Below, one piece after another: positions 5,002-52,100 of a stretch of 64,000 nt of DNA (position 1 is its first letter; each line of letters begins with the position of its first letter). The notes under the pieces are model-generated. The model ran no database searches. It had not been told where the DNA came from and saw nothing but the letters and a program-made list of their open reading frames with translations. Both the position numbers and the translations under genes were made by a program. The stretch comes from an uncultured Acidobacteriota bacterium (GTDB lineage: Bacteria; Acidobacteriota; Vicinamibacteria; Marinacidobacterales; SMYC01): the NCBI GenBank assembly GCA_964553925.1, contig CAZKNR010000128.1, positions 2,017-66,016 on the forward strand, read 5' to 3'.

Positions 5002-5838
5002 TCAGTCGTCGAAGACGAACGTCGGCTCCTGGTAGTAGCGCACCTTGTGCTCGGAGACCTTGTGCCGCATCTCCTCCACGAGCCACCGCCGCTTCTCTTC
5101 GAGCGGGAGGTTCGACTTCAGGAGGGGCAGCCGAAGGTTGAATCCGAGCACACGGCGGGGAACGAGGATGCGGGTGACCCCTGATGGAAGGAGATGGCCT
5201 CCCTCGGCGACCGCGCGCACGTCGGACTTGGCGAAATCGGGGAACGAGACCAGGGCTCCGAAGTGGGGATGGTGCTGCCGCAGCGCGGCCACGTCCGAAT
5301 GGTTCACCCGGTCCATGCGCGCTTCCCCGCGGTAGTAGACGCCGACCACGGCATGGAGGTTCTCGACGCGGGCGGCGAGGCTCCCCCGATCGTAGAGATG
5401 AAGGGATCGATCCTCCGCCGTGGTGACCGTCGCGAGGAATCCCTCTTGGTTCGCGGAATCCTCGGGGCGGCCCTCTCTCACGGACACGCCGGGAATCTCC
5501 CGCGCCTTCAACAGGAGCTCCCGCGCCTCGATGTCACGGACCACGTGGTTCCAGTGCCGGACTTCGAGATTCTCGTTCTCGAAGGGCTCGACCTGAACGA
5601 TCAAGTGGGGGATGTCGAGGTTCTGTACGGCGGAGACCCGATTGGCCCCGTCGAGGAGAAGGAACCGGTCGCTTCCCGGGAGGCTCGCGACGATGGGAGG
5701 GTTCTTCAGGATCCCGTCGGCGGAGAGGCGGTCGATGAGGCGGGTCACCCTCTCGAGGTCGACCCTCTCGTGCAGGAGGAGGTCGGCCACGGGAACGATC
5801 CTGAGATCGGGAAAACCCCCGGACGGCTCGGTCATCAC
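5002..5838 (-). CDS. ParB/Srx-fold (ParB N-terminal-like) domain protein with an uncharacterised C-terminal half
   Basis: N-terminal IVPVADLLLHERVD...KNPPIVASLPGSDRFLLLDGANRVSAV resembles the ParB-N/DGxxR box, with N in place of the usual H. The C-terminal ~150 aa are not recognisable. GTG 5838 / ATG 5835 overlaps the stop of the upstream xre gene. Confidence 0.5.
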   Translation of the reverse strand: MMTEPSGGFPDLRIVPVADLLLHERVDLERVTRLIDRLSADGILKNPPIVASLPGSDRFLLLDGANRVSAVQNLDIPHLIVQVEPFENENLEVRHWNHVVRDIEARELLLKAREIPGVSVREGRPEDSANQEGFLATVTTAEDRSLHLYDRGSLAARVENLHAVVGVYYRGEARMDRVNHSDVAALRQHHPHFGALVSFPDFAKSDVRAVAEGGHLLPSGVTRILVPRRVLGFNLRLPLLKSNLPLEEKRRWLVEEMRHKVSEHKVRYYQEPTFVFDD

Positions 5839-14518: not shown

Positions 14519-15997
14519 ATGCTGACTTCGAAAGTCATCCGAACCATCGACCGGTACCGAATGGTCCATCCGGGCGACCGCGTGCTCGTCGGCCTTTCCG
14601 GCGGCGCCGATTCGGTCGCGCTCACGGAGCTCCTCGTCGAGCTGAAACCTCGCTTCGGGATCTCGCTGGTCCTCGCCCACTTGAACCACGGCCTGCGCGC
14701 GGAGGCCTCCGAGGACGAAGCTTTTTGCCACTCGCTTTCGGAAAGGCTGTCGCTTCCCTTCGTGTCGGGCCGGGTCGACGTCTTCGAGCGAGCGCGCAAG
14801 AACAAACGCTCGATCGAAGCCGAGGGCCGCAACGCCCGCTATGAGTTTCTGGAAGCCCAGGCGGCGCATTTCGGCGCCCAGAGAATCGCCGTCGGCCATA
14901 CCCTCGACGATCAGGCGGAGACGTTTCTCCTGCGTCTTCTCCGCGGCTCGGGCTCGCGTGGACTTGGAGCGATTCATCCGGTCAGGGCGATCAAGGCGGT
15001 CACGGCCGTCAAGGACGGCGGAATCGTTCGCCCCCTGATCGAAGTACGGAGGCGGGAGATCGAACGCTACCTCGAAGAGAGAGGGGCGAGTTTTCGTGAA
15101 GATCCATCGAACGCCGACCCCAGGTTCACCCGGAACCGAATCCGACACGAGGAGCTCCCGCGGCTTTCGTCGGCATACAACCCCCGGCTCGTCGAGACTC
15201 TTGCCCGCAGCGCGTCGCTCCTCAGGGACGAGGAGGAGTGGATGGAGGCGGAAACGAGGGAGGCTTTCGACGGATTGGCCGCCGTATCGCGGGACGAGAT
15301 CCGGCTCGACAAGAAAGCGCTCTCTCGCCACCCGCTCGCTCTCCGGCGCCGTTTGATCCGCCTCGCGATCGAGCGGCTTCGGGGACTCGGCAACGTCTCT
15401 CACCGTCACATCGAGGACGTCCTGGCCTTGGCGGAGGAGGGTCAAAGCGGCCGCGAGCTGCACCTTCCGGAGCTCGTGGTCGAGCTCTCCTTCGACCAGA
15501 TGCGATTTCGTCTGGGTTCGACGGCGCGGGCGTGGAAAGCGCGCGAACGGGGCTATAATGGCTTCGAGTACCTATTGTCGATTCCATCCCGAGTCCGGAT
15601 TCCAGAGGGCCTCGGAACCCTCTCGACACGGATCGAGGAGCCGAATCGAGCGCTGCCGGATCGAGAGCTGCCGAATCGAGATGCCCCACTACCCTTTGGG
15701 AATGCGGTCATGGTGGGATTCGACGGACGCGTGCCGGAGCTCAAGGTGAGAAGCCCCAGGCCAGGGGACCGGTTCCACCCTCTGGGAGCGCCCGGGTCGA
15801 AGCCGCTCTCGCGCTATCTTATGGACAGGAAAGTGTCACGAGACTCGAGGTCGCGGGTTCCGCTTTTGGTGCGCGGTCTTTCGAGTCTCGGTGATTCTGG
15901 TGAGGAGATCCTCTGGGTGGTAGGACATGGAGTTTCCGAAGCATCCCGGGTTTCGCCCGGCTCGTCCCGGCTCTCGTTTCGTTGGGAGACCGTATGA
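14519..15997 (+). CDS. tilS: tRNA(Ile)-lysidine synthase
   Basis: PP-loop VLVGLSGGADSVAL, LAHLNHGLR, IAVGHTLDDQAETFLLRLLRGSG. Confidence 0.9.
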   Translation: MLTSKVIRTIDRYRMVHPGDRVLVGLSGGADSVALTELLVELKPRFGISLVLAHLNHGLRAEASEDEAFCHSLSERLSLPFVSGRVDVFERARKNKRSIEAEGRNARYEFLEAQAAHFGAQRIAVGHTLDDQAETFLLRLLRGSGSRGLGAIHPVRAIKAVTAVKDGGIVRPLIEVRRREIERYLEERGASFREDPSNADPRFTRNRIRHEELPRLSSAYNPRLVETLARSASLLRDEEEWMEAETREAFDGLAAVSRDEIRLDKKALSRHPLALRRRLIRLAIERLRGLGNVSHRHIEDVLALAEEGQSGRELHLPELVVELSFDQMRFRLGSTARAWKARERGYNGFEYLLSIPSRVRIPEGLGTLSTRIEEPNRALPDRELPNRDAPLPFGNAVMVGFDGRVPELKVRSPRPGDRFHPLGAPGSKPLSRYLMDRKVSRDSRSRVPLLVRGLSSLGDSGEEILWVVGHGVSEASRVSPGSSRLSFRWETV

Positions 15998-16512
15998 GCG
16001 CCGGCGACGGACTCCGGGTGCTCTTCACCGAGGAGGAGATCCGCGGGCGGGTGAAGGAGCTCGGGCTCAGGATCACCCGGGACTTCGCCCCGGAGAACGT
16101 GGCTTCGGTCGGGATCCTTCCCAACTCCATGGTGTTCATGGCGGACCTGATACGGTCGATCGATCTCCCGCTCACCTGCGATTTCCTCAAGGTGGGCTCG
16201 TCGGATGCCCGCCGCGTCGATATCGCGTTCGGAAACGCGACCGATTTCAGCGGCCGCGACGTATTGTTGATCCAGGGAGTCGTCGATACCGGGGTCACGC
16301 TCTCGTTCATCACCGGACACATCCAGGAGACGTGGAAACCCCGGTCGCTGAAAGTGGTGGCGCTCATCAACCGAGAGGCGCACCGGAAAGTCGACTGTCC
16401 CGTGGACTACGCCTGCTTCGAGCTCGAACAAGAGGGCTTCGTCGCGGGCTACGGACTGGGTTATGAGGAGCAGCATCGCGGAGCCCCGTTCATCGGCTTC
16501 GCGGCTTCGTAG
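15994..16512 (+). CDS. hpt: Hypoxanthine phosphoribosyltransferase homolog (divergent active-site motifs)
   Basis: Conserved tilS-hpt-ftsH position and overall HPRT-like layout (...FMADLIRSI...CDFLKV...FVAGYGLGY...). The PRPP loop reads VLLIQGVVDTGVT rather than VLIVEDIIDxGxT. ATGA overlap with the tilS stop. Confidence 0.75.
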   Translation: MSAGDGLRVLFTEEEIRGRVKELGLRITRDFAPENVASVGILPNSMVFMADLIRSIDLPLTCDFLKVGSSDARRVDIAFGNATDFSGRDVLLIQGVVDTGVTLSFITGHIQETWKPRSLKVVALINREAHRKVDCPVDYACFELEQEGFVAGYGLGYEEQHRGAPFIGFAAS

Positions 16513-18492: not shown

Positions 18493-18585
18493 CTACGCTT
18501 ACCGAGCGAAGGATTTACTAAGCTAGCGAGCTAGCTCAGCCGCGGCTTCGTCGAGGCGCTCGGTGATTTTATCGAAAGGCCGGAA

Positions 18586-19503
18586 GTGCGCGCTCTGACC
18601 TTCCGAGCGAAGAACGAGAGACTGAAGCTCGGGGAGACGACCGCCCTCATGGGAGTGGTGAACGTCACCCCCGATTCTTTCTACGCGGGAAGCCGTCGTC
18701 TCGACCCCGACGAGGCGCTCGCCTTCGCCCTCAATCTGGCGGAAGCGGGCGCGGACATCGTCGATATCGGGGGCGAGTCGACCCGTCCGGGTGCCTCCGA
18801 AACCGCCGTCGAGGAAGAGATCCGTCGAGTGGTGCCGGTGGTTTTGCGCCTTCGCCCTCTATCTCGCGTCCTCATCTCCGTCGATACCCGAAGGGCGGCA
18901 GTGGCGGAACGGGCGCTCGACGCCGGGGCGGACATCGTCAACGACGTCTCCGCTCTTGCCGATTCCCGAATGGCGGCGGTCGTCGCCCGCGCGAAAGCGG
19001 GTCTGGTGCTCACGCACATGAAGGGAGCGCCCTCGACGATGCAGGCTTCGCCTTCCTATCGAGACGTGGTCGCCGAGGTCACGGAGTATCTCGGGCGCGC
19101 GATCGAAAAAGCGGAATCGTCCGGGGTCGCGAGCGAATCCATCCTCGTCGACCCCGGCATCGGCTTCGGAAAGACTCTGGAGCACAATCTCACTCTCCTC
19201 AGAAACCTCGCGGCGCTCTCGCAGCTTTCGAAGCCCATCCTCGTCGGGACCTCGCGCAAGAGCTTCCTCGGACAGATCCTTTCGGCGGCACCCGCCCGCG
19301 ACGCCGGGAGCGACGAGGAAGAACGGATTTTCGCCACCGCGGCGAGCGTCGCCTGCGCGGTGCTCCTGGGGGCCTCCGTGGTGCGGGTCCACGACGTCCG
19401 CGAAATGCGCCAGGTGGTAGCGGTCGCCGATGCCATCAAGAACCTAAGTGCTTCGGGCGTGCCTTTCCCACGGGGCGTGGCGCTGTCCGAGGGGACCCCA
19501 TGA
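18586..19503 (+). CDS. folP: Dihydropteroate synthase
   Basis: LMGVVNVTPDSFYAG, GADIVDIGGESTRPGA, VDPGIGFGKT, VRVHDV. Confidence 0.9.
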   Translation: MRALTFRAKNERLKLGETTALMGVVNVTPDSFYAGSRRLDPDEALAFALNLAEAGADIVDIGGESTRPGASETAVEEEIRRVVPVVLRLRPLSRVLISVDTRRAAVAERALDAGADIVNDVSALADSRMAAVVARAKAGLVLTHMKGAPSTMQASPSYRDVVAEVTEYLGRAIEKAESSGVASESILVDPGIGFGKTLEHNLTLLRNLAALSQLSKPILVGTSRKSFLGQILSAAPARDAGSDEEERIFATAASVACAVLLGASVVRVHDVREMRQVVAVADAIKNLSASGVPFPRGVALSEGTP

Positions 19504-20384
19504 GCGGCTACGCGGACGAGCTCGTCCAGTTCCTCGAGGCGCTCGGGCAAAGGCTCTCGTGGATCGCGGTCCTCGATATCGCCATCGTCAGCTATCTCGT
19601 CTACAAGCTCCTCCAGCTCATCCGCGGAAGCCGCGCCTTCCAGATGGTCGTGGGGACAGTCGTGCTCGTGGCCTTCTTCTTCGCCTCGCAGTGGGCGGAG
19701 CTTTCGACCGTCAACTGGATCCTCCAAAAATCGCTCGCTTACATCGGCTTCGCCATCATCGTGCTCTACCAGCAGGAGCTCCGTAAGGCGCTCGCTTCGA
19801 TCGGGCAAGCGCCGCTCTTCCGGTTCCTGAATCCTTCGTCGAGCCAGGAAACGCTCGATGAAATCGCGTTCGCGGTTTCGAGCCTCGCGCAGCGGCGCAT
19901 GGGGGCCATCGTCGTCCTCGAGCGCGACATCGGGCTCCGGGGATACGTCGAGGGCGGCATCCTTCTGGATGCCGTCGTCAATTACGACCTGCTGCTTTCG
20001 ATCTTCAATCCCAAGTCTCCTCTCCACGACGGCGCTGTCATCATCCAGGGAGATCGAATCGCCGCCGCGGCGTCGTTTCTCCCCATCTCCATCAACCCCC
20101 AGCTCTCGAAGGAGCTCGGCACCCGGCACCGGGCGGCGATCGGAATCACCGAGGACACCGACGCCGTCGCCATCGTGGTCTCGGAGGAAACGGGGATGGT
20201 GAGCCTGGTGGAAGACGGTGCCATGGTCTCCGGTCTCGAGGCGGAGTCCTTCCGATCGCGGCTCAAGGAGGCCATGGGGCAGGCGGAGGCGCCGGTTGCG
20301 GCTCGCGAGTCCGCGGAAGCGCCAAAAACAGCTGGAGAAGCCGCGGCCGAAGACACCGCGGAGGCGAGCTTGGGGAAGCGATGA
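19500..20384 (+). CDS. cdaA: Diadenylate cyclase CdaA (membrane-anchored DAC domain)
   Basis: Three N-terminal TM segments, GAIVVLERD, SPLHDGAVII, LGTRHRAAIGITEDTDAVAIVVSEETG. ATGA overlap with folP. Confidence 0.9.
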   Translation: MSGYADELVQFLEALGQRLSWIAVLDIAIVSYLVYKLLQLIRGSRAFQMVVGTVVLVAFFFASQWAELSTVNWILQKSLAYIGFAIIVLYQQELRKALASIGQAPLFRFLNPSSSQETLDEIAFAVSSLAQRRMGAIVVLERDIGLRGYVEGGILLDAVVNYDLLLSIFNPKSPLHDGAVIIQGDRIAAAASFLPISINPQLSKELGTRHRAAIGITEDTDAVAIVVSEETGMVSLVEDGAMVSGLEAESFRSRLKEAMGQAEAPVAARESAEAPKTAGEAAAEDTAEASLGKR

Positions 20385-21283
20385 GAGAGCATCTGGGTCA
20401 GAAGGCGATCTCGCTTTTTCTGGGCTTTTCCCTGTGGTACGCGGTGGCGCGCGAGCAGGAGGCGGAGTTCTCGCTCTCCATTCCCATCGAGCTCCGGGAC
20501 CTCCCCGAGGGGCTCGAGGTGATCGAAGAGTCCGTGCAACAGGCCGAGGTCCGGCTTCGCGGCCCCGCGGAGATTCTCCGCCGGCTCACCCCAAAGGACG
20601 TCAACATCGGGGTCGACCTCGAGGATGCCGAGCCGGGAGAGCGGATCGCCTATCTCACCCCGCGAGAGGTCGGGGCGCCGTTCGGAGCCAGGGTGATGAG
20701 AGTCACTCCGACCAGCGTCCGGGTCGTGCTCGATCGCACCGTGGAGAGGACCGTCGAGGTGATTCCCCGGGTCGTAGGCTCGCCCGCCGAAGGCTTCGAG
20801 CTCTACCAAATCGATCTCTCGCCGGAAACAATCGACGTCGTAGGCCCCGCCTCCCACGTTTCCGGCCTCGAGCAAGTGACGACCGAGCCGGTCTCCGTGG
20901 ACGGGCTTCGAGAGCCTTACTCCCGTCTGGTGCGGGTCGAGCTCGACCCGCTGGTGAGGATCGAACGGGAGCTGAACGTCGCCCTCACCCTCGAGGTACG
21001 CGAGGAGCACCGGCGCCGCGAGCTCTCGGGGGTGGCCGTAAGGAGCCTTCCGGAAGACAAAGCCGCCAGACTCACGCCGGGCACGGTCAAGGTCCGGCTC
21101 GAGGGCCCGAAGAGCCTCGTCGACCAGCTCCGGGCCGAGGACCTTCTCGCCCAAGTTCAGCTCTCGGATCTCCCGCCCGGACGACACTCCGTGGCTCCGG
21201 CCATCGTCTTCTCTTCTCCCGAAGCGAGCTCGATCGAGATTCTCTCGATCGAGCCCGAACAGATTCGAGTTCTCATACAATGA
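20381..21283 (+). CDS. cdaR: YbbR-domain protein (CdaA regulator CdaR)
   Basis: N-terminal TM, repeated beta-rich YbbR-like modules, ATGA overlap with cdaA, upstream of glmM. Confidence 0.7.
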   Translation: MREHLGQKAISLFLGFSLWYAVAREQEAEFSLSIPIELRDLPEGLEVIEESVQQAEVRLRGPAEILRRLTPKDVNIGVDLEDAEPGERIAYLTPREVGAPFGARVMRVTPTSVRVVLDRTVERTVEVIPRVVGSPAEGFELYQIDLSPETIDVVGPASHVSGLEQVTTEPVSVDGLREPYSRLVRVELDPLVRIERELNVALTLEVREEHRRRELSGVAVRSLPEDKAARLTPGTVKVRLEGPKSLVDQLRAEDLLAQVQLSDLPPGRHSVAPAIVFSSPEASSIEILSIEPEQIRVLIQ

Positions 21284-21304
21284 AACAATGGGTTTGGAGC
21301 AAGT

Positions 21305-21412
21305 GCAAGAAAGGGGGATGGGGAGATGGGAGGAGATAGGGAGATCAATCAGGACCGATCGGACCAATTTATCCCCCTATCTCCTCCTGTCCCCATATCC
21401 CCCTTGTATTGG
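21305..21412. repeat. G-rich palindromic intergenic element, copy A (arms of about 40 nt, about 25-nt loop)
   Basis: Left arm GCAAGAAAGGGGGATGGGGAGATGGGAGGAGATAGGGAGAT. Right arm ATCCCCCTATCTCCTCCTGTCCCCATATCCCCCTTGTATTG, an imperfect reverse complement of the left arm. Related to 29892-29992. Confidence 0.8.
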
Positions 21413-21446
21413 ATTTCCTTAGCGTAATTGAGGAGCGAAGTACTAA

Positions 21447-22799
21447 GTGAAGTTGTTTGGAACCGACGGAATTCGCGGCATTGCCTACGAGCCTCCTCTC
21501 GACCGCGCCACAGTGACCCGGATCGGTCTCGCCCTCGCGCGGAATCTCGACGCTCGTAGCCCGAGAGTGCTCCTCGGCCGCGATACTCGCCGGAGCGGAC
21601 CCGATCTGGAGCGGTGGCTCATGAGCGGGCTCGCGAAAGGCGGCGCCACTGCCGAGTCGGCGGGAGTGATCACGACGCCGGCCGTCGCTTTTCTCACCCG
21701 GAGCGAAGGGTTCGACGCGGGTGTCGTGCTCTCCGCTTCGCACAATCCGTATCGCGACAACGGCATCAAAGTGTTCACCGCGGCGGGGTCGAAATCGAGT
21801 GCGGATCTCGAGGCCCGGATCGCTCGCGACGTCGCCCGAGTGGAAAACGTTCCCGAGGCCGCGGAGACCCTCGAGACAAGCTCCGCCATCTCGGATCCCG
21901 ACCCAAGGTTCGAGGAGCTCTACCTCGACCATCTGCTCGCGGCCGTCCCTCACGAAGCCAGGGCGCGGCTCCCGAAGAAGGAGATCGCGCTCGACTGCGC
22001 GAACGGAGCCGGATACCGTGTGGGCCCGCGGCTCCTGAGAGAGCTCGGGCTCGTGGTCCATCCGCTCTTCGCGGAACCGAACGGGGAGAACATCAACCAA
22101 CAGTGCGGCTCGACCTCTATGAGCGCCGTAAGCTCCGCGGTGGTCGAGAGGGGATGCGATCTCGGGGCCGCCCTCGACGGCGACGGAGATCGCCTCCTGA
22201 TGGTCGACGCAAGCGGCCGGGTGATCGACGGCGACGCGCTCCTCCTTCTTTGCGCCCGGCGCTTGAGGAAGGAAGGACGCGCCCGAGCCGTCGTGGCCAC
22301 GGTGATGAGCAACATGGCTCTCGAGCGGGCCCTCGCCGAGGAAGGGATGGAGCTCTATCGCGCCCCGGTCGGCGACAAGTTCGTCGCCCAGGAAATGGCG
22401 GACCGTAATATCATCCTGGGCGGTGAGCAGTCGGGACACATCATCTTCGGCGACTACGGCTCGACGGGCGACGGTTTGCTGACACTCCTCCAGGTGTTGC
22501 GCGTGCTGGCCCTCGAGGGCCGGAGCCTCGGCGAGCTCGGGCGACTCGATCCGTTTCCCCAGGTGCTTCTGAACGTACGGGTGAAAGAGCGACCCGAGGT
22601 GAGGGACGTGCCGGCGCTCGCGCGGGCAATCGACGAAGCCGAAAGAAGGCTCGGAAGCCGCGGCCGGGTGCTGGTGCGTTACTCGGGCACCGAGCCCTTG
22701 CTGCGCATCATGATGGAGGGGCCCGAGCGGCCCGAGATCGAATCCCTGGCGAAGAGCGTCGAGGACGCCGCGAGGGCCTCGATCGGGGAGACGGCATGA
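21447..22799 (+). CDS. glmM: Phosphoglucosamine mutase
   Basis: (V)KLFGTDGIRG, VLSASHNPYRDNGIKVF, ALDGDGDRL, GGEQSGHI. GTG start. Confidence 0.95.
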   Translation: MKLFGTDGIRGIAYEPPLDRATVTRIGLALARNLDARSPRVLLGRDTRRSGPDLERWLMSGLAKGGATAESAGVITTPAVAFLTRSEGFDAGVVLSASHNPYRDNGIKVFTAAGSKSSADLEARIARDVARVENVPEAAETLETSSAISDPDPRFEELYLDHLLAAVPHEARARLPKKEIALDCANGAGYRVGPRLLRELGLVVHPLFAEPNGENINQQCGSTSMSAVSSAVVERGCDLGAALDGDGDRLLMVDASGRVIDGDALLLLCARRLRKEGRARAVVATVMSNMALERALAEEGMELYRAPVGDKFVAQEMADRNIILGGEQSGHIIFGDYGSTGDGLLTLLQVLRVLALEGRSLGELGRLDPFPQVLLNVRVKERPEVRDVPALARAIDEAERRLGSRGRVLVRYSGTEPLLRIMMEGPERPEIESLAKSVEDAARASIGETA

Positions 22800-23542
22800 T
22801 CGAGCTCGGAGTCACGCTCAACGCCGTAGCGCTTCTCCGCGAGTCCCGGAAGACCAGGGGCCCGGATCCGGTGTTCGCCGCGTTCCTGGCGGAACAGGCA
22901 GGAGCTTCCGCGATCAACGTTCAGCTCAGGAGCGATCGGCGCCACATCCAGGAGCGGGACGTGCGTCTTCTGCGGGAGTCCGTGGGGGTGGAGCTCAACC
23001 TGGCGATTACGCCGAGCCAGGAGATGATTCGATTCGCCCTCACCGCGAAGCCGGATCGTGCGACCTTCATCCCCGAGAGGCTCGAGGCGGCGGGCGGCGG
23101 CGGATTGGACGTGCTCCTCAACACCCCTCAGCTCAAGGAGCGGATGCGGGAGATGCGAGAGAGCTCCATTCTCCCGGGAATCCTCATCGACCCCTCGATC
23201 GACCAGGTCAAGGCCGCGCATCAGGTGGGGGCCGCGGGGATTACCATCGCGACCGAGGCCTTCGCCGCGGCAAGCGACCAGGTGGGTCTCGCGCGCGACC
23301 GTGAGGCCATCGACCGGGAGCTTCAGAAGCTCTCGGATTGCGCCCGCCTCGGTTCCAAGCTGGATCTCCACGTCAGTGTCAGCCACGGACTGAACTTGCG
23401 TAAAGCGCGCCTTTTGCTGGACGTCCCGGGCCTCGCCCGGGTCGACGCCGGTCATGCCCTGGTTTCGAGAGCGGTCATGATCGGGTTTGCCGCCGCCGTC
23501 GAGGAGTGGGTCGAGCTTCTTCAAGGGCGGCCCAAAAATTGA
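22796..23542 (+). CDS. pdxJ: Pyridoxine 5'-phosphate synthase
   Basis: LGVTLNAVALLRESR, INVQLRSDRRHIQERDV, ELNLAITP, ATFIPE, SHGLNL. ATGA overlap with glmM. Confidence 0.9.
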   Translation: MIELGVTLNAVALLRESRKTRGPDPVFAAFLAEQAGASAINVQLRSDRRHIQERDVRLLRESVGVELNLAITPSQEMIRFALTAKPDRATFIPERLEAAGGGGLDVLLNTPQLKERMREMRESSILPGILIDPSIDQVKAAHQVGAAGITIATEAFAAASDQVGLARDREAIDRELQKLSDCARLGSKLDLHVSVSHGLNLRKARLLLDVPGLARVDAGHALVSRAVMIGFAAAVEEWVELLQGRPKN

Positions 23543-28545: not shown

Positions 28546-29808
28546 TCATGAAACCAGGCTGGGGTAGAGGGGGAAGCCCGAAGTGAGCTCTCGCACGTCC
28601 CTCGCCACGCTCTCGAGCTCGGACGGCCGCTCCCGGCCCCGGAGCGCCCGCGCGATGAACCGAGAAACGCGCTTCATCTCCTCTTCCTTCATCCCGCGGC
28701 TCGTGAGCGCCGGGGTCCCGAGACGGACGCCGCTCGCGACGAGAGGCGGCCTCGTATCGAACGGGATCACGTTCTTGTTCGCCGTGATTCCGGCCTTCTC
28801 GAGAGCTTCCTCCGCTTCCTTGCCCGTGATGCCGCTCGCGCCCACGTCGACGAGGACCAGGTGGTTGTCGGTGCCGCCGGAGACGAGGCGGAACCCCTCT
28901 TCTTTCAGCCCCTCCGCGAGAGTCGCGGCGTTCGACACGATCTGCCGGGCGTAGTCCCGGAACGAACTCTCGAGCGCCAGCTTGAGACAGACGGCCTTCG
29001 CCGCGATGACGTGAACCAGAGGTCCGCCCTGGATTCCGGGGAAGGTGACGCGGTTGATGTCCTTGGCGTGGGCCTCGCGCGAAAGAATGAGGCCGCCCCT
29101 TGGCCCGCGGAGGGTCTTGTGAGTGGTGGTGGTGACGAAGTCTGAATGGGGCACGGGGCTTTCATGGACGCCTCCCGCGACGAGCCCCGCGATGTGAGCC
29201 ATGTCCGTCACGACCTTCGCCCCCACTTCGTCCGCCGCTTGCCGGAACCGCGCGAAATCGATCCGGCGCGGATAGGCGCTGGCACCCACGAGGATCATCT
29301 TCGGCCGGTTTTTACGCGCGAGCTCGATAACGGCGTCGTAGTCGATCTGTTCGTCCTCGCGCCGGACGCCATAGGGGACGACTTTGTAGAGGCGCCCGGA
29401 GAAATTCAGCGGATGTCCGTGAGTGAGGTGCCCCCCGTGCGAGAGGTCCATACCCATGAAGGTGTCCCCCGGGTCGAGGAGCGTGAGGTATACCGCCATG
29501 TTGGCCTGGGTCCCGCTGTGCGGCTGAACGTTCGCGTGCTCGGCGGAAAAGAGCTCTTTAGCGCGCGCGATCGCGAGCCGCTCTACCACGTCGGCGAACT
29601 CACAGCCTCCGTAGTAGCGCCGGCCGGGGTAGCCCTCCGCGTACTTGTTCGTGAAGACCGAGCCCGTGGCCTCGAGGACCGCGAGGCTCACGAAATTTTC
29701 GGAGGCGATGAGCTCGAGACCGCCGCCCTGGCGATGGGTCTCCTTCAGGATCGCGGAGGCGATTTCCGGATCCGCCTGTCTCAGCGAAACCTGCAGCTCC
29801 TGGCCCAC
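28546..29808 (-). CDS. glyA: Serine hydroxymethyltransferase
   Basis: [41 protein letters not shown] start lies 5 nt after AGGAGGAG. Confidence 0.95.
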
Positions 29809-29891
29809 GGGCGCTCCTCCTGAAGAAGGCCCATCTTAACGGTTCCCGCCGAAAGGCGCGAACCTCGGTACTGCGCTGCCCTACTCAAAAT

Positions 29892-29992
29892 CCAATACAA
29901 GGGGGATACGGGGATAGGAGGAGATACGGGGATAAAATTGGACCCAATAGGTCTCCCCATCTCCTCCCATCTCCCCATCCCCCTTGTATTTC
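29892..29992. repeat. G-rich palindromic intergenic element, copy B (reverse orientation relative to copy A)
   Basis: Left arm CCAATACAAGGGGGATACGGGGATAGGAGGAGATACGGGGAT matches the reverse complement of the copy A right arm. Right arm TCTCCCCATCTCCTCCCATCTCCCCATCCCCCTTGTATTTC matches the reverse complement of the copy A left arm. Confidence 0.8.
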
Positions 29993-30120
29993 TTTTTGCG
30001 GCTAGGCGGCCCGCCCCGGGGTACGCACTATCGCACACCTCGGAATTCGGTTACACTGGTTGGGTTCTCGTTCATTAAAGGACAAAATCAGCGCTACCCA
30101 GGCTAGATGGGGCCGTAAGT

Positions 30121-30984
30121 TTGGACAAACAGAGGGACAGGCTCCCACGGTTGGCGCCCGAATCCGCGGACGGAGGCGGAGGCGGGGAAGAGCCGGCCTC
30201 GCGCATTCCCGAAGAAGCGGGGGAGATCTACGAGCTCGTGGAGGAGTCGGGCGTCGCCGCGCTCCCCGAGCCTTCGCCGCCGCCGCCTCCTCCCCCGCGT
30301 CCGCAAGCACCCGTGCTCCCCGAGGAAACGATTCAAGAGCTGCGCGCGCTCCGGGCCAAGCTCGAAAACAAGGACCGCCAGATCGAGCAGGTCATGGAGG
30401 CCTACCGCGGCAAGAAAGAGGAGACGGAGAAGCTCCGAACGCGCATCGAAAAGACCGAGCGGCGGAAATTCGAGCAGTCGAAGGGCGACTTCATCGCGCG
30501 CTTCGTGGAAGTGCTCGACAACCTCGACCGCGCCATCGATTCGATCGAGAACGCCTTCGATCCGGACTCCGTGCTCCAGGGGATCATGCTCGTGCGCTCC
30601 CGCCTGGTCCAGCTCCTCAAGGAAGAGGGGCTCGAGAAGATCTTCGTCCGGGGTCAGACGTACGACCCCACGCACAGCGAGGCCGCGGGTCTCGAGGACG
30701 TGCCCAACGAGTCCCAGGATGGAATGGTGCTGAAGGAACTGCAGCCCGGGTACATGCTGAAGGGATCTCTCCTGCGCGTCGCCCGCGTCGTAGTCGGGCG
30801 ATACGGCACCGATTCCGCGCAGCCAGGCGCCGCTTCCGATCCGGGAGCGATAGCGGTAGCGCCTCCGCCTTCAAAGCCACGCGAGCCGGGAGACGGCGAC
30901 CAGTCCGGCTCTTCGTGGGAGGCGGACAAAGCAGCACACGAGCTCGAGTTCAGCGAGGACGGCGTCGACTTCAGTAACGAGTGA
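30121..30984 (+). CDS. grpE: Nucleotide exchange factor GrpE (with Pro-rich N-terminal and a C-terminal extension)
   Basis: Coiled coil, then FIARFVEVLDNLDRAI, GIMLVRSRLVQLLKEEGLEKI, FDPTHSEA, GYMLKGSLLRVARVVV. TTG 30121 start is uncertain. No dnaK or dnaJ adjacent. Confidence 0.8.
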   Translation: MDKQRDRLPRLAPESADGGGGGEEPASRIPEEAGEIYELVEESGVAALPEPSPPPPPPPRPQAPVLPEETIQELRALRAKLENKDRQIEQVMEAYRGKKEETEKLRTRIEKTERRKFEQSKGDFIARFVEVLDNLDRAIDSIENAFDPDSVLQGIMLVRSRLVQLLKEEGLEKIFVRGQTYDPTHSEAAGLEDVPNESQDGMVLKELQPGYMLKGSLLRVARVVVGRYGTDSAQPGAASDPGAIAVAPPPSKPREPGDGDQSGSSWEADKAAHELEFSEDGVDFSNE

Positions 30985-32758: not shown

Positions 32759-32812
32759 CGCGCCCCGAAACGATCTCAGTACTTCACTCCTGCAGAAGAA
32801 GAAAAATCTTAC

Positions 32813-41096: not shown

Positions 41097-41446
41097 TAGC
41101 TGGACGTTAACACGGAATGAGCGTGTCGTTTCCAAGGATCGATAATTCAACAAAATGAAACTCGATTCAGAAATCGAAATCCGCCCGGGCGTCGTTCCAA
41201 GAACGCGAAGATCCATCCATGGCGCCGGATCCATTCCTCGCGCGCGACGATCGAGCTCGACCGCCGAAGTATGGAGAGTCATCGATTTGCTCGAGACCGC
41301 CTGAGCCGCGCGCCGTGGCACGTCGGTTGCAGTCTCGAATCGCAGGCGCGGAGCACCCGAGTCTCCGTTTCGATGAGGAGATTCAATAATCCAAATCGAC
41401 GGGTTCTCGGGCTCTCGCGTCTTCCGTGAAAGGAGATGCATTTCTC

Positions 41447-44338
41447 ATGAAGAAGAAACTCTTAGCTCTCGTTCCGATGGTGCTCCTCACCCTCGGCTCT
41501 CTCGCATCGGCCCAGACCGCGGGAGAGATCCAGGGTGTGGTGACCGACACGCAAGGCCTCACCATGCCCGGCGTCACGGTGACGCTTGGAGGAGAGGCGG
41601 TCCTCGGAGCGCAGATCGCCATCAGTCTCGAGGATGGATCGTTCCGCTTCCGCGGACTCCGGCGAGGGTCGTACAGCCTTCGCTTCGAGCTCCAGGGCTT
41701 CCAGACGCTGAACCGCGAGGGCGTCATCGTCGAAGGCAACCGTACCGTCACCCTGAACGTGGGCCTTCAGCTCGCGACGATCTCGGAAACGGTGACCGTC
41801 ACCGGCGAGTCGCCGGTGGTGGACGTCAAGAATACGTCCCTCAGCAACGAATTCGGGGCGACGGAGCTCTCCGACGTTCCGAGCGCGACCGACGTCTGGT
41901 CGGTCTTGAGCCAGACCCCCGGCGTTCGCATGCGCGGCTACGACGTGGGCGGAAGCCACAAGAGCCAGCAGATCGGCTACGAGAGCTTCGGCGTCCGCCG
42001 GCAGAACCGGGTCATTTCGGACGGCGTCGACTCGACCGAAGGGACCAGCGGCACCGGGTTCTATTACGACTACTACTCGATCGACGAGTTCACGACGTCC
42101 GCCGCGGGCGCCGACGTGGAGATGAACTCTCCCGGCTCACAGGTGGTAATGACGCTGAAGAGCGGGGGCAACGAGTTCTCCGGTCTCTACCACGCCGACT
42201 ACGAAGGAGAGAGCTTCGTCTCCGACAACCTCGACGACGACCTCAGGGCCCGAGGCTATACCGGAAACCCGAACCTCCTTTTCTGGGAGACCCACTTCGA
42301 TCTCGGCGGACCCATCGTCACCGATAAGGCGTGGTTCTACGGTTTCTACAACCATTTCCGGATCGACAAACAGATCTCGGGCGTCAACCCGGACGTGGCC
42401 ACCGATCTCGGGGACTTCGATCAGTTCGGAGGAAAGCTCACCCTGCAGCTCACGCAGAAAGACCAATTCATCGGCTACAGCCAGTGGGGCTTGAAAGAGA
42501 AGCCGCTTCGGGGCCTGTCGACCTTGATTCCGCCGGAGTCGATCCTCGCCCAGGCGAGCTGGTCGTGGGCCCACAAGGCCGAGTGGCAGAGGGTCTGGAA
42601 CGATCGCGCGTTCAGCAACGTTCAGGTCAAGTATTTCGGCTTCGGCTGGCCGATGGTGCCCGCCGTGGATCCCGGAAGCAACCCGCCGCGCATCGACAGT
42701 GCGACGTCGCTCCGGAGCGGCGCCGGTTGGAATAACACCAACCCTCCCTTCACCCTCGACCGATGGAAGCCGCAGGTCACGGCGACGATGAGCTACTACA
42801 TGCCCGACACCTCCAACTGGGCCGGGAGCCTCGACTGGAAGTTCGGCTTCGACTGGCAGATCGACTCCTCCCAGTACGGTTCGAACGGGAACTCGGGTCC
42901 CATCCGCTACTTCGACAACAGTCTCCTCGGCCGTCCACGTAACGTCGACGAGATCGCTCTTTTCAGCGTGCCCGCGGAAGGGCGCGTCGGGGCCGACAAC
43001 CGCGACAAGACGACGGCGTTCTTCGTGCAGGACACCTGGACGCTGAACGACCGGCTCACCATGAATCTCGGCTTCCGCTTCGGACGCCAGCAGGCGTACT
43101 ACCTGGACTCCGAGCTCACGCCGTTCTTCTCGGAGTTCTTTCCCACGGGGACCATCGAGGGGCAGACGCTCACCACGTGGAACAACTTCGCTCCCAGGCT
43201 CGGCGTCACGTACGACATCAGCGGCCGGGGCAAGACGATCGTCAAGGGTCACTACGGCCGCTATTACAACAACATCGCCGACACTCTATCGACGGGGAAT
43301 CCCGCAAACGTGGCCTGGGTCCGGCGCAAGTTTCTCGATCAGAACCAGAACGGACTCTATGACGGACCGGCGGAGCTTGGAGCCGTCGTCACTCAGGCGG
43401 GAACCGTGGGCTCGAGCCTCGCGGGAGCGAGGGGAACGGCCGTCAATCCCGATCTGAAACCCGCCTTCGCCGACGAGTTCAGCGGTTCGCTCGAGCACGA
43501 GATCTCGACCGACAGCTCGCTCCGGTTCTCCTACGTCCGCAAGCAGCAGCGAAACGACTACGGACAGTGGAACCGGGCGCAGCAGAACCCGCTGTTCGCG
43601 GGGCAGGGTATCCCCTGCGGCGACTCCGTCTTCCCCTGTCCCCTCGATCCTTTCACGGGCCAGCCGCTTCGCGTCCAGCGGGTTGCCTCTTCCGCGGCCA
43701 ACGTCCAGGATCAGGTGATCGATACCTTCCCCGGAAGCGACGCCAACTTCGACACCCTCCAGCTCGCGTACACCCGCCGCTTCGGCGACAACTTCTTCAT
43801 CCAGGGAAGCGGCGACTATCAGTGGCGCGACGAGCTGAGGCGCGCCGACGCCGAGGCCCAGGACCCGCTCACGGCCGATCCTCTCGACGTCGGCTGCGAC
43901 GTCGGCGGAGCCACCACCTGCTGGCAGAACCACAGCCTCGACGTCCCCTTCCGCCAGGAGAACACCAACTGGGGCGCGCGCCTGCTCGCCCGCTACGTGT
44001 TCCCGAAGGAAATCGGGCTGTCTGGCAACGTTCGCTATCAGAGCGGCTGGCCCTGGGCGCCGATCCATCGCGTCAACATCCCCGGCTCGGGAACGCTACC
44101 CATCTTCCTCGAGAACGTGGACCAGAACCGCTCTGAAGACGTGACCATCGTCGACCTCAGGGTAGAGAAGGGCTTCACCCTCGGCCCCGGCCGGCTCACG
44201 GGCATGCTGGACCTCTACAACCTCTTCAACAGCAACTCGGAGGTGAACTTCAACCTTCGAACGGGCACGAGATTCCGCAACATCATCGCCGCCCTCGACC
44301 CGCGCGCGTTCAAGATCGGGATTCGCTACCAGTTCTAG
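41447..44338 (+). CDS. Large outer-membrane beta-barrel, TonB-dependent-receptor-like with N-terminal CarboxypepD_reg domain (paralog 1)
   Basis: Signal peptide MKKKLLALVPMVLLTLGSLASAQ. GVVTDTQGLTMPGVTVTL...GSFRFRGL, VTVTGESPVVDV plug-like region, C-terminal ...FKIGIRYQF. AAAGGAGA SD. Confidence 0.85.
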   Translation: MKKKLLALVPMVLLTLGSLASAQTAGEIQGVVTDTQGLTMPGVTVTLGGEAVLGAQIAISLEDGSFRFRGLRRGSYSLRFELQGFQTLNREGVIVEGNRTVTLNVGLQLATISETVTVTGESPVVDVKNTSLSNEFGATELSDVPSATDVWSVLSQTPGVRMRGYDVGGSHKSQQIGYESFGVRRQNRVISDGVDSTEGTSGTGFYYDYYSIDEFTTSAAGADVEMNSPGSQVVMTLKSGGNEFSGLYHADYEGESFVSDNLDDDLRARGYTGNPNLLFWETHFDLGGPIVTDKAWFYGFYNHFRIDKQISGVNPDVATDLGDFDQFGGKLTLQLTQKDQFIGYSQWGLKEKPLRGLSTLIPPESILAQASWSWAHKAEWQRVWNDRAFSNVQVKYFGFGWPMVPAVDPGSNPPRIDSATSLRSGAGWNNTNPPFTLDRWKPQVTATMSYYMPDTSNWAGSLDWKFGFDWQIDSSQYGSNGNSGPIRYFDNSLLGRPRNVDEIALFSVPAEGRVGADNRDKTTAFFVQDTWTLNDRLTMNLGFRFGRQQAYYLDSELTPFFSEFFPTGTIEGQTLTTWNNFAPRLGVTYDISGRGKTIVKGHYGRYYNNIADTLSTGNPANVAWVRRKFLDQNQNGLYDGPAELGAVVTQAGTVGSSLAGARGTAVNPDLKPAFADEFSGSLEHEISTDSSLRFSYVRKQQRNDYGQWNRAQQNPLFAGQGIPCGDSVFPCPLDPFTGQPLRVQRVASSAANVQDQVIDTFPGSDANFDTLQLAYTRRFGDNFFIQGSGDYQWRDELRRADAEAQDPLTADPLDVGCDVGGATTCWQNHSLDVPFRQENTNWGARLLARYVFPKEIGLSGNVRYQSGWPWAPIHRVNIPGSGTLPIFLENVDQNRSEDVTIVDLRVEKGFTLGPGRLTGMLDLYNLFNSNSEVNFNLRTGTRFRNIIAALDPRAFKIGIRYQF

Positions 44339-51881: not shown

Positions 51882-51964
51882 GATTTCCATTCCTCCTAAA
51901 TTCGTCCCTGAAAGACCGCCGTCAGGGGCGAAAGCGTTGGGCACCGGGACCGGCGGCGCTCTGG

Positions 51965-51994
51965 TATATAGCAAGCGATATGCCAGAGATTCAA
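51965..51994 (-). promoter_or_regulatory. Sigma70-like promoter (TTGAAT-N18-TATATA) upstream of OMP paralog 2
   Basis: Seen directly on the minus strand, about 85 nt upstream of ATG 51881. Confidence 0.35.
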
Positions 51995-52100
51995 AGGCGG
52001 GCCTCGAACTTAAGGCATTGAATAACCTGAAGTTGCACAGAGGCAAAAAAGGGGGGGCTTACGGGAATGATTCGGATATTCCGATCTCCGGATCCGTGAT

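Follow-up and report, generated by a model that had tools for sequence, protein, structure and literature searches.

A long palindromic hairpin fills the cdaR-glmM junction

The 64,000-nt stretch of DNA analysed here (the window), from an uncultured Acidobacteriota bacterium, carries in the spacer between cdaR and glmM a G-rich palindromic element, hereafter copy A. A first-pass annotation of the same DNA had described the palindrome and placed it within an operon, and both statements held: arms and sequence were confirmed, and the stop and start codons overlap across folP-cdaA-cdaR and glmM-pdxJ. These junctions are 4-nt overlaps, and the sole open junction, cdaR/glmM, is the one that the element occupies. 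The genes of the operon and the parts of copy A are listed below.

18586-19503, folP (Pfam)
19500-20384, cdaA (Pfam)
20381-21283, plus strand, cdaR, the upstream gene, coding for a YbbR-domain protein (Pfam YbbR, 1.6e-25)
21281-21284, plus strand, TGAA, left member of a possible 4-bp target duplication, including the cdaR stop
21285-21447, plus strand, copy A, the entire inserted unit of 163 nt, which occupies the full cdaR-glmM spacer (from empty orthologous sites and other copies)
21285-21310, plus strand, A-rich head ACAATGGGTTTGGAGCAAGTGCAAGA, homologous to ..GCAAAGGGTTTGGAAGAGTGTAAGAAAG in other copies (alignment of 54 copies with flanks)
21311-21405, plus strand, main hairpin, made of a G-rich arm (21311-21349), an apical part (21350-21366) and a C/T-rich arm (21367-21405)
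21406-21420, plus strand, T-rich tail GTATTGGATTTCCTT, read from the sequence and kept in the family consensus ..CCCCCTTGTATTGGATTTCCTT
21421-21447, plus strand, module 3, 27 nt, AGCGTAATTGAGGAGCGAAGTACTAAG, which contains GAGGAG and whose final G opens the GTG start of glmM
21448-21451, plus strand, TGAA, right member of the possible target duplication, which with the preceding G reads GTGAAG.., the glmM start
21447-22799, plus strand, glmM, the downstream gene, coding for phosphoglucosamine mutase (Pfam PGM_PMM_I-IV, full-length protein)
22796-23542, pdxJ (Pfam)

We read copy A as one copy of a high-copy, non-autonomous mobile repeat that resembles REPINs and miniature inverted-repeat transposable elements (MITEs), is transcribed, and probably acts as an intercistronic or 3′-end RNA hairpin, and we give this reading a probability of about 0.6. 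That copy A belongs to a mobile or dispersed repeat family is, on its own, highly probable. The role as an RNA hairpin, which is argued by analogy with better-known elements, is put forward as a tentative proposal.

The two arms of copy A are 39 nt each, 82% complementary and 17 nt apart, and the main hairpin amounts to ~45 bp. As RNA, positions 21295-21425 folded at -70.1 kcal/mol, compared with -43.7 ± 4.1 kcal/mol for dinucleotide shuffles (z -6.5), and none of 200 shuffles equalled the natural sequence. The arm pattern AAGGGGGAT N0-2 GGGGA N2-4 GGAGGAG matched the window four times, once per arm of the two copies that it holds, with 0.00 matches expected. The first-pass annotation had foreseen a very long hairpin, and folding agreed with it in both copies (z -6.5 for copy A and z -7.85 for copy B); its imperfect reverse-complement arms of ~40 nt also stand, but the repeated unit is 21285-21447 and not 21305-21412.

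A profile search of the window detected copies A and B only. A second copy had been placed at 29892-29992; it is real, and its orientation, opposite to that of copy A, is a correction. Indeed, the plus strand of copy A aligns with the minus strand of copy B at 84% column identity, so that the copies are mutually inverted, and copy B scores 112.8 bits on the minus strand compared with 62.1 on the plus strand. It follows that the element has a distinguishable head and tail. Copy B folded at -64.3 kcal/mol (29886-29998) and carries a degenerate module 3 (GCAGCGCAGTACCGAGG). Two further places in the window hold remnants that lack the hairpin. These features and the genes around copy B are the following.

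29869-30007, minus strand (sense), copy B, the entire unit, in the spacer of the divergent genes glyA and grpE, the tail facing the glyA start
29894-29990, minus strand, main hairpin of copy B (inverted-repeat search and RNA fold)
28546-29808, minus strand, glyA (Pfam)
30121-30984, plus strand, grpE (Pfam)
18493-18522, plus strand, hairpin-less remnant consisting of module 3 only (CTACGCTTACCGAGCGAAGGATTTACTAAG), directly after the ftsH stop; the full element stands there in the related loci L081, L069 and L030
32775-32812, minus strand, second hairpin-less remnant (GTAAGATTTTTCTTCTTCTGCAGGAGTGAAGTACTGAG), module 3 with traces of head and tail, directly after the stop codon that ends an epimerase/dehydratase-family gene (Pfam GDP_Man_Dehyd and Epimerase) and before the start of a PMT-family gene

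Because the same site is filled in L081, L069 and L030, the hairpin next to ftsH seems to have been lost by deletion in the lineage of the window.

Copy A belongs to a large family in Vicinamibacteria-like Acidobacteriota

A metagenome scan with a 23-base arm pattern recovered at least 120 loci, all of 60-67% GC except four at 52-56%. All family counts given here come from the 1.26 Mb of loci recovered with this pattern. In them, a profile built from five copies identified at least 144 elements, representing at least ~130 distinct copies at unrelated loci. The repeat family suspected in the first-pass annotation is therefore real, and a single local duplication is contradicted. Contigs that carry the family have ~64% GC, come from freshwater sediment and belong to Vicinamibacteria-like Acidobacteriota. 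In agreement with a high copy number, summed contig depth in public freshwater-sediment DNA runs holding the window was higher over the element than over its flanks by 20-27x (X1), ~100-170x (X3) and ~90x (X4), and contigs end inside the element. In the sediment samples of X1 and X2 the lineage is present at ~25-30x. Depth in the DNA runs also went up 4-10x over ~50 nt at 21734-21787, inside glmM, probably because the conserved phosphoserine-loop region of PGM/PMM enzymes draws contigs of many genomes.

The nearest named homologues of CdaR are annotated as Vicinamibacteria and are 64-71% identical, and loci of Acidobacteriota metagenome-assembled genomes (MAGs) are orthologous to the metagenome loci, which points to a Vicinamibacteria-like lineage as the host. 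In a scan of one genome per species, the arm was found in an Acidobacteriota MAG (L006, L009 and L019), in at least six Pirellulales/Planctomycetaceae MAGs and, in a looser form, in two cyanobacteria; the remaining matches look like chance or coding matches. The planctomycete elements (L007, L013-L018, L022-L024 and L026) have the same ~30-nt arms (AAGGGGGATATGGGGATNNGGAGGAGAT) around variable interiors of 50-230 nt and fold at -42 to -119 kcal/mol, and in L024 and L026 there is a single arm only. Convergence or an enzyme in common may account for this shared arm. Viral contigs gave no match to the arm pattern. A 107-bit copy that is near-identical to copy A, with conserved loop and tail, was seen at 5092-5213 of a contig labelled as a Spirochaetales MAG (L020, CAZPNB010000280.1); this contig, of 5.4 kb and 64% GC, is either mis-binned or the product of a transfer.

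The element is built of modules around a conserved hairpin

The family consensus reads (GTG)TAAGAAAG or AGAAATACAAG, then GGGGGATGGGGAGAT(R)GGAGGAGATGGGGAGAT, GAATCAGGACCTATTGGCCAATTT, ATCTCCCTATCTCCTCCTGTCCCCNTATCCCCC and TTGTATTGGATTTCCTT. Copy A represents a short form with head, hairpin, tail and module 3. In many copies the tail is followed by two optional outer modules, 2 and 3. Module 2 is made of CTTTGCGCCCTTGCG.. repeats. The 1.26 Mb contain 107 matches to module 2 (CTTTGCGCCNTTGCG-type; for example L040:2000-2170 and L081:13400-13475), 40 of them just downstream of a hairpin and 15 inverted on the head side. Another 46 are not near a G-rich hairpin, which makes module 2 a repeat family of its own. 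The window contains no module 2. Module 3 reads ..CGTAATTGAGGAGCGAAGTACTAAG, and its core GAGCGAAGTACTAAG, with up to 2 mismatches, was found 14 times, in 11 cases within 200 nt downstream of a hairpin and in the same orientation. Several of these modules abut a start codon, and in 4 of the 9 cases measured module 3 ended 0-2 nt before it. The fullest copies are nested palindromes with the order mod3′-mod2′-hairpin-mod2-mod3, such as that of L040, whose termini are CTTAGTAC...GTACTAAG and which folds at -189 kcal/mol over 380 nt.

When the consensus helix of 42 pairs was mapped on 65 copies, 90.5% of the cells were paired, compared with 89.5% when partners were shuffled and 53-62% when partner columns were slid. 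We mapped the consensus fold in this way instead of relying on RNAalifold, which gave a poor 10-pair consensus because the periodic arms had slipped out of register in the MAFFT alignment. Independently of the search pattern, only 9 unascertained copies bear on the conservation of the GGAGGAGAT/ATCTCCTCC core, too few to be informative. In the consensus, five pairs are G.U on the sense strand and none is A.C, and for 46 of 61 copies folding energy was lower in the sense RNA than in the antisense RNA (-61.0 vs -55.7 kcal/mol). Both asymmetries favour a strand-specific hairpin, in the form of RNA or of single-stranded DNA.

A different palindrome of 157 nt, with (CACAGAG)n-like arms, lies between the helicase gene and glyA at L100:4232-4387 and is absent from the window, where the corresponding point is 28551/28552. 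It represents a second family of hairpin repeats with arms of ~7-nt periodicity, and similar CACGGAGA repeats adjoin planctomycete elements in L013 and L023.

Insertion at a translationally coupled junction

Orthologous sites differ in the presence of the element, with outgroups showing the empty ancestral state, and among the options listed in the first-pass annotation they speak for a miniature mobile element. At site A, the cdaR stop overlaps the glmM ATG without any spacer (ACAATGA...) in L030, L151 and L154, and the two genes abut in L155. A 40-nt spacer is present in L152 and L153, and an unrelated GC-rich spacer of 105 nt in L081 and L069. The empty site with its ATGA overlap in relatives indicates that the element at site A is derived. 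L112, which is 97.7% identical to the window, also has copy A, and L100, which is 96% identical, also has copy B; site B is empty in L081, L151, L152 and L154. At the ftsH-folP site the element is present in L081, L069 and L030, and the site is empty or holds a remnant in the window, L112, L151 and L152. Relatives whose flanks have no more than 83-94% identity still share many filled sites, so the family, as has been reported for REPINs, persists in place for a long time.

Junction A reads ACAATGAA[21285..21447]TGAAGTTGTTTGG, and the GTG start of glmM is composed of the last G of the element and the TG that follows. The N-terminus of GlmM, (M)KLFGTDG, is retained (MxxLFGTDG in relatives and MKTV in L151). 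In the lineage of the window, a unit landed precisely within the stop/start overlap (ATGA) of cdaR and glmM, broke translational coupling and moved the glmM start to GTG.

Besides the TGAA/TGAA pair at site A, the ftsH-folP element of L081 is flanked by TTAG[..]CTAG. In the filled/empty pairs L123/L132 and L128/L036, ~20 nt were replaced without a clean target duplication. With empty sites coming from relatives that have diverged by 6-20%, a target duplication of constant length is not established. GTTTGGA, which flanks copy A at either end, was not accepted as a target duplication because the left GGGTTTGGA belongs to the element head in many copies.

The element is polar with respect to genes

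Genes were called with a home-made caller based on the GC content of third codon positions (GC3), which reproduces all Pfam-confirmed genes of the window. The element occupied 29 of 117 convergent spacers (24.8%), 11 of 102 divergent spacers (10.8%; Fisher p 0.008 against convergent, a 2.3x difference) and 40 of 377 tandem spacers (10.6%). Among tandem copies with a clear orientation, 24 ran with the genes and 7 against them (p 0.003). The gene on the head side was on the same strand in 55 cases and on the opposite strand in 13, and the distance from stop codon to element had a median of 14 nt, with 40 of 55 copies within 30 nt. From the tail to the start codon, co-oriented tandem copies showed a median of 22 nt (14 of 24 within 30 nt); from the head to the start codon, the seven anti-oriented copies showed 9-2343 nt (median 64). 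These distances indicate that the unit is polar, its head tolerating an adjoining stop and its tail or module 3 an adjoining start.

Proposed role as a transcribed hairpin

The element would be transcribed together with its host operon and fold into a long hairpin between an A-rich and a U-rich tract. Where convergent genes end, this hairpin could act as a (bidirectional) terminator or as a barrier to 3′-exonucleases; within operons such as folP-cdaA-cdaR/glmM-pdxJ, a leaky attenuator or a point of mRNA stability or processing would be most likely. A copy inside an operon would allow different expression levels of its upstream and downstream halves. Element-bearing sequences were present in X11, the sole RNA-labelled run, as unstranded contigs. 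The sequence after the stem was read by eye on both strands: the two closing T's of the stem and the tail of copy A read CCCCC-TTGTATTG, with 5 T in 8, and on the other strand CCCCC runs into TTTCTTGC in copy A or TTGTATTT in copy B. Since glmM begins 22 nt past the profile match of copy A and a promoter consensus scan gave no sigma-70-like site in 1.2 kb around it, copy A is not a tight terminator. Similarly, roughly half of the co-oriented tandem copies lie too close to the next gene to accommodate a promoter, so that read-through must be common.

The cdaA-cdaR-glmM genes form a c-di-AMP and cell-wall operon. In Firmicutes, GlmM reportedly binds and restrains CdaA; the relative dosage of CdaA and GlmM may matter.

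Elsewhere in the window, two inverted paralogous genes for outer-membrane proteins that resemble CarboxypepD_reg / TonB-dependent receptors (41426-44338, plus strand, and 49014-52046, minus strand) share ~74% nucleotide identity over 1.2 kb, with GWxTD-TPR and sulfatase-TPR genes between them.

Resemblance to known dispersed palindromes

Much is known of dispersed palindromic repeats in Proteobacteria. In enterobacteria, the bacterial interspersed mosaic elements (BIMEs) are mosaics of short modules around palindromic units, located after stop codons and between cistrons, and their classical roles are stabilization of mRNA 3′ ends and weak termination. The element is likewise a modular mosaic after stops and between cistrons, but its modules are other sequences, its palindromes are nested and its central hairpin is far longer than those of BIMEs and other repetitive extragenic palindromic (REP) mosaics. 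It shares with intrinsic bidirectional terminators an A-rich tract, a G/C-rich stem and a U-rich tract, as well as the location after stops and the enrichment at convergent ends; it differs in its stem of ~45 bp compared with 5-14 bp, its apical region of ~17-25 nt and its interrupted U tract (UUGUAUUGGAUUU).

The element also resembles REPINs, hairpin-forming REP doublets that are moved by RAYTs (REP-associated tyrosine transposases), and the related terminal inverted repeats (TIRs) of the TIRYT tyrosine transposases (PMC3116915, PMC3337134, PMC3733652). As in these, inverted arms of ~40 nt with a short spacer form a hairpin of ~100 nt, the copies are extragenic and number tens to hundreds, a consistent target duplication is not evident, orthologous sites stay filled for long, and G.T/G.U pairing occurs on one strand. 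A sharply defined acidobacterial TIRYT group has been described, as has a motif GGGGWSAS in TIRYT repeats (PMC3733652), and the reverse complement of the C-rich arm of our element contains GGGGACAG; the arm sequence itself was absent from the supplement of that study (PMC3733652). In contrast to REPs, the element has no GTAG/CTAC or CGTC/GACG tag at the ends of its arms (consensus of 65 copies, flanks of 54), which read AAGAAAG/ATACAAG-GGGGGAT and ATCCCCC-TTGTATTGG, and for this reason we do not file it as a REP. It also differs from REPINs in that its arms are built of ~7-8-nt purine units and are not small REP stem-loops, in its outer palindromic modules and polar tail, and in that no RAYT/TIRYT gene was found in the available sequence.

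For a copy inside an operon, the Correia elements (CREE/NEMIS) of Neisseria are the best functional analogue. They are inverted-repeat elements of ~100-150 bp beside or between genes, as is ours (PMC2649163, PMC5039591), and they are co-transcribed, form hairpins that RNase III binds or cleaves, and can alter the expression of adjacent genes (PMC2649163, PMC5039591). Their sequence, however, is unrelated, and their TA target duplication, integration host factor (IHF) site and promoter-forming ends are not seen here. More generally, in architecture and placement the element matches the REP/BIME and Correia types, which supply 3′-end hairpins, weak or bidirectional terminators, exonuclease barriers and RNase III substrates (PMC3184786, PMC2649163).

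The first-pass annotation had also considered a match to a known Rfam or REP family; neither an Rfam match nor a GTAG/CGTC tag came up. At the gathering threshold, Rfam gave no matches in the entire window, and at E≤10 it returned 46 generic miRNA-precursor hairpins and two snoRNA matches, with 12-37 bits against thresholds of 42-137. A scan for tRNA and tmRNA gave none. An integron attC site was rejected because the copies are dispersed among housekeeping genes, those of the window have no cassette arrays as neighbours, and no core GTTRRRY is visible in the consensus (intI was not searched for), and CRISPR was rejected on context.

Alternative explanations

Several results weigh against a mobile repeat with an RNA role. 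Covariation in the helix is weak, double-sided changes being no commoner than in shuffles, so that conservation of the sequence is the main reason why the helix is kept, a pattern expected of a repeat that is young or diverges slowly. The G.U and fold asymmetries are largely inherited from one master sequence and count for little more than one observation. Strand-specific insertion combined with gene-strand bias could account for the orientation bias, and the GC3 caller on which the placement figures depend was validated on the window only. A terminator scan, limited to loops of 3-8 nt, missed the element with its imperfect T-run. Finally, no transposase was found, and a six-frame scan of the 1.26 Mb gave no Y1/HUH motif except in an unrelated IS200-like gene in L156. 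Some of these results fit a purely selfish or neutral repeat without any RNA role, in which the biases would reflect the spots that tolerate insertion, past stop codons and far from promoters, and strand-specific insertion, and the hairpin would be a by-product of inverted-repeat ends, an explanation that we regard as unlikely though not negligible. Weak covariation, a loop conserved as much as the stems, the avoidance of divergent, promoter-bearing spacers and the remnants at 18493-18522 and 32775-32812, where a dispensable hairpin may have been deleted, all speak for it. The 2.3x enrichment in convergent spacers, on the other hand, holds over tandem spacers as well as over divergent ones, sites remain filled across 6-17% flank divergence, the unit has a polar head/stop and tail/start geometry, and G.U pairs are asymmetric on the sense strand, although none of these points is decisive.

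The position of copy A directly upstream of glmM in a conserved operon could suggest a dedicated regulatory RNA of cdaA-cdaR-glmM, an attenuator or riboswitch-like leader evolved in place; however, the same sequence adjoins at least ~130 unrelated genes, the junction is a 4-nt overlap in relatives, and no Rfam family matches, so that a glmM-specific leader is refuted by the distribution of the family and we give it almost no credence. It is also very improbable that the G-rich arm works as a G-quadruplex or i-motif switch, forming in DNA or RNA in competition with the hairpin. The runs of G5, G4 and G3 are real and the sense arm of copy B has the canonical motif, but the left arm of copy A departs from it (four runs of G≥3, loops of 1-7 nt) with a last loop of 8 nt, a common GATAGGAGGAGAT variant (GATAGGAGG) removes a G-run, and the competing hairpin is worth about -60 to -70 kcal/mol. 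The motif occurs in 19 of 70 copies on the sense strand (27%) and in 9 of 70 on the antisense, and the G-quadruplex capability that had been ascribed to copy A is not supported as a defining property of the family. As for a classical DDE-type MITE, that is, a deletion derivative of an insertion sequence (IS) sharing its ~40-bp terminal inverted repeats, the long inverted arms (~39-47 nt) have the form of such repeats, planctomycete arms enclose variable interiors of 50-230 nt in a MITE-like layout, and TGAA/TGAA and TTAG/CTAG flank site A and the L081 site. Yet other filled/empty pairs show no consistent duplication, no arm pair of the acidobacterial family in the arm-pair scan encloses an open reading frame (ORF), no transposase adjoins the copies, and the palindromic layers of full-length composites extend past the arms. 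We consider this origin improbable. A mobile repeat acting as a transcribed hairpin is the reading that we retain.

Mode of spread

Searches for a mobilising gene extended to the surroundings of the copies. The tblastn comparison of the loci with the Y1 transposase of L156 gave no such gene, and Pfam analysis of the ORFs between neighbouring copies returned housekeeping genes and no transposase. In the arm-pair scan, 95 of 107 pairs were separated by 60 nt or less, and pairs hundreds of nt apart were limited to one planctomycete and one cyanobacterial locus. The L156 gene just mentioned (15640-16239, minus strand) is an IS200-like Y1_Tnp (PF01797) located between yggS-like and PTPS genes; its ends are unrelated to the G-rich element. 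L156 comes from a Vicinamibacteria-like relative that is further removed, and its sister locus L155 lacks the insertion.

With no constant target duplication established, and with persistence at fixed sites and strand-asymmetric pairing, spread by a single-strand mechanism of the HUH/Y1 (RAYT/TIRYT) type would fit better than that of a DDE-type MITE, and we offer it as a lead only. A bolder possibility, to which we attach little weight, is a polar intercistronic cassette that joins a mobile, stop-proximal hairpin to a start-codon adaptor (module 3, ..GAGGAGCGAAGTACTAAG). Such a cassette could colonise even 4-nt overlaps in essential operons and leave the downstream gene functional, turning coupled translation into hairpin-separated cistrons. 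Its enzyme would possibly be a TIRYT-like HUH protein, and the ~30-nt recognition arm (AAGGGGGAT..GGGGA..GGAGGAGAT) common to Acidobacteriota and Planctomycetota would imply transfer between phyla.

Significance of the family

The family is previously undescribed, and the kind of element is an ordinary one in a poorly studied phylum. To our knowledge, almost nothing has been described of dispersed palindromic repeats in uncultured Acidobacteriota, Vicinamibacteria included. These repeats break Acidobacteriota assemblies and can mislead gene calling through spurious ORFs across the elements. Copy A offers a clean, polarised case of a repeat that entered a junction with coupled translation and restored the start codon, and the arm held in common with planctomycete elements and the nested modular build provide leads on the origin and movement of the repeat. 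If the RNA role proposed here is true, many transcript ends could be recognised by copies of this family in genomes that have no terminator model.

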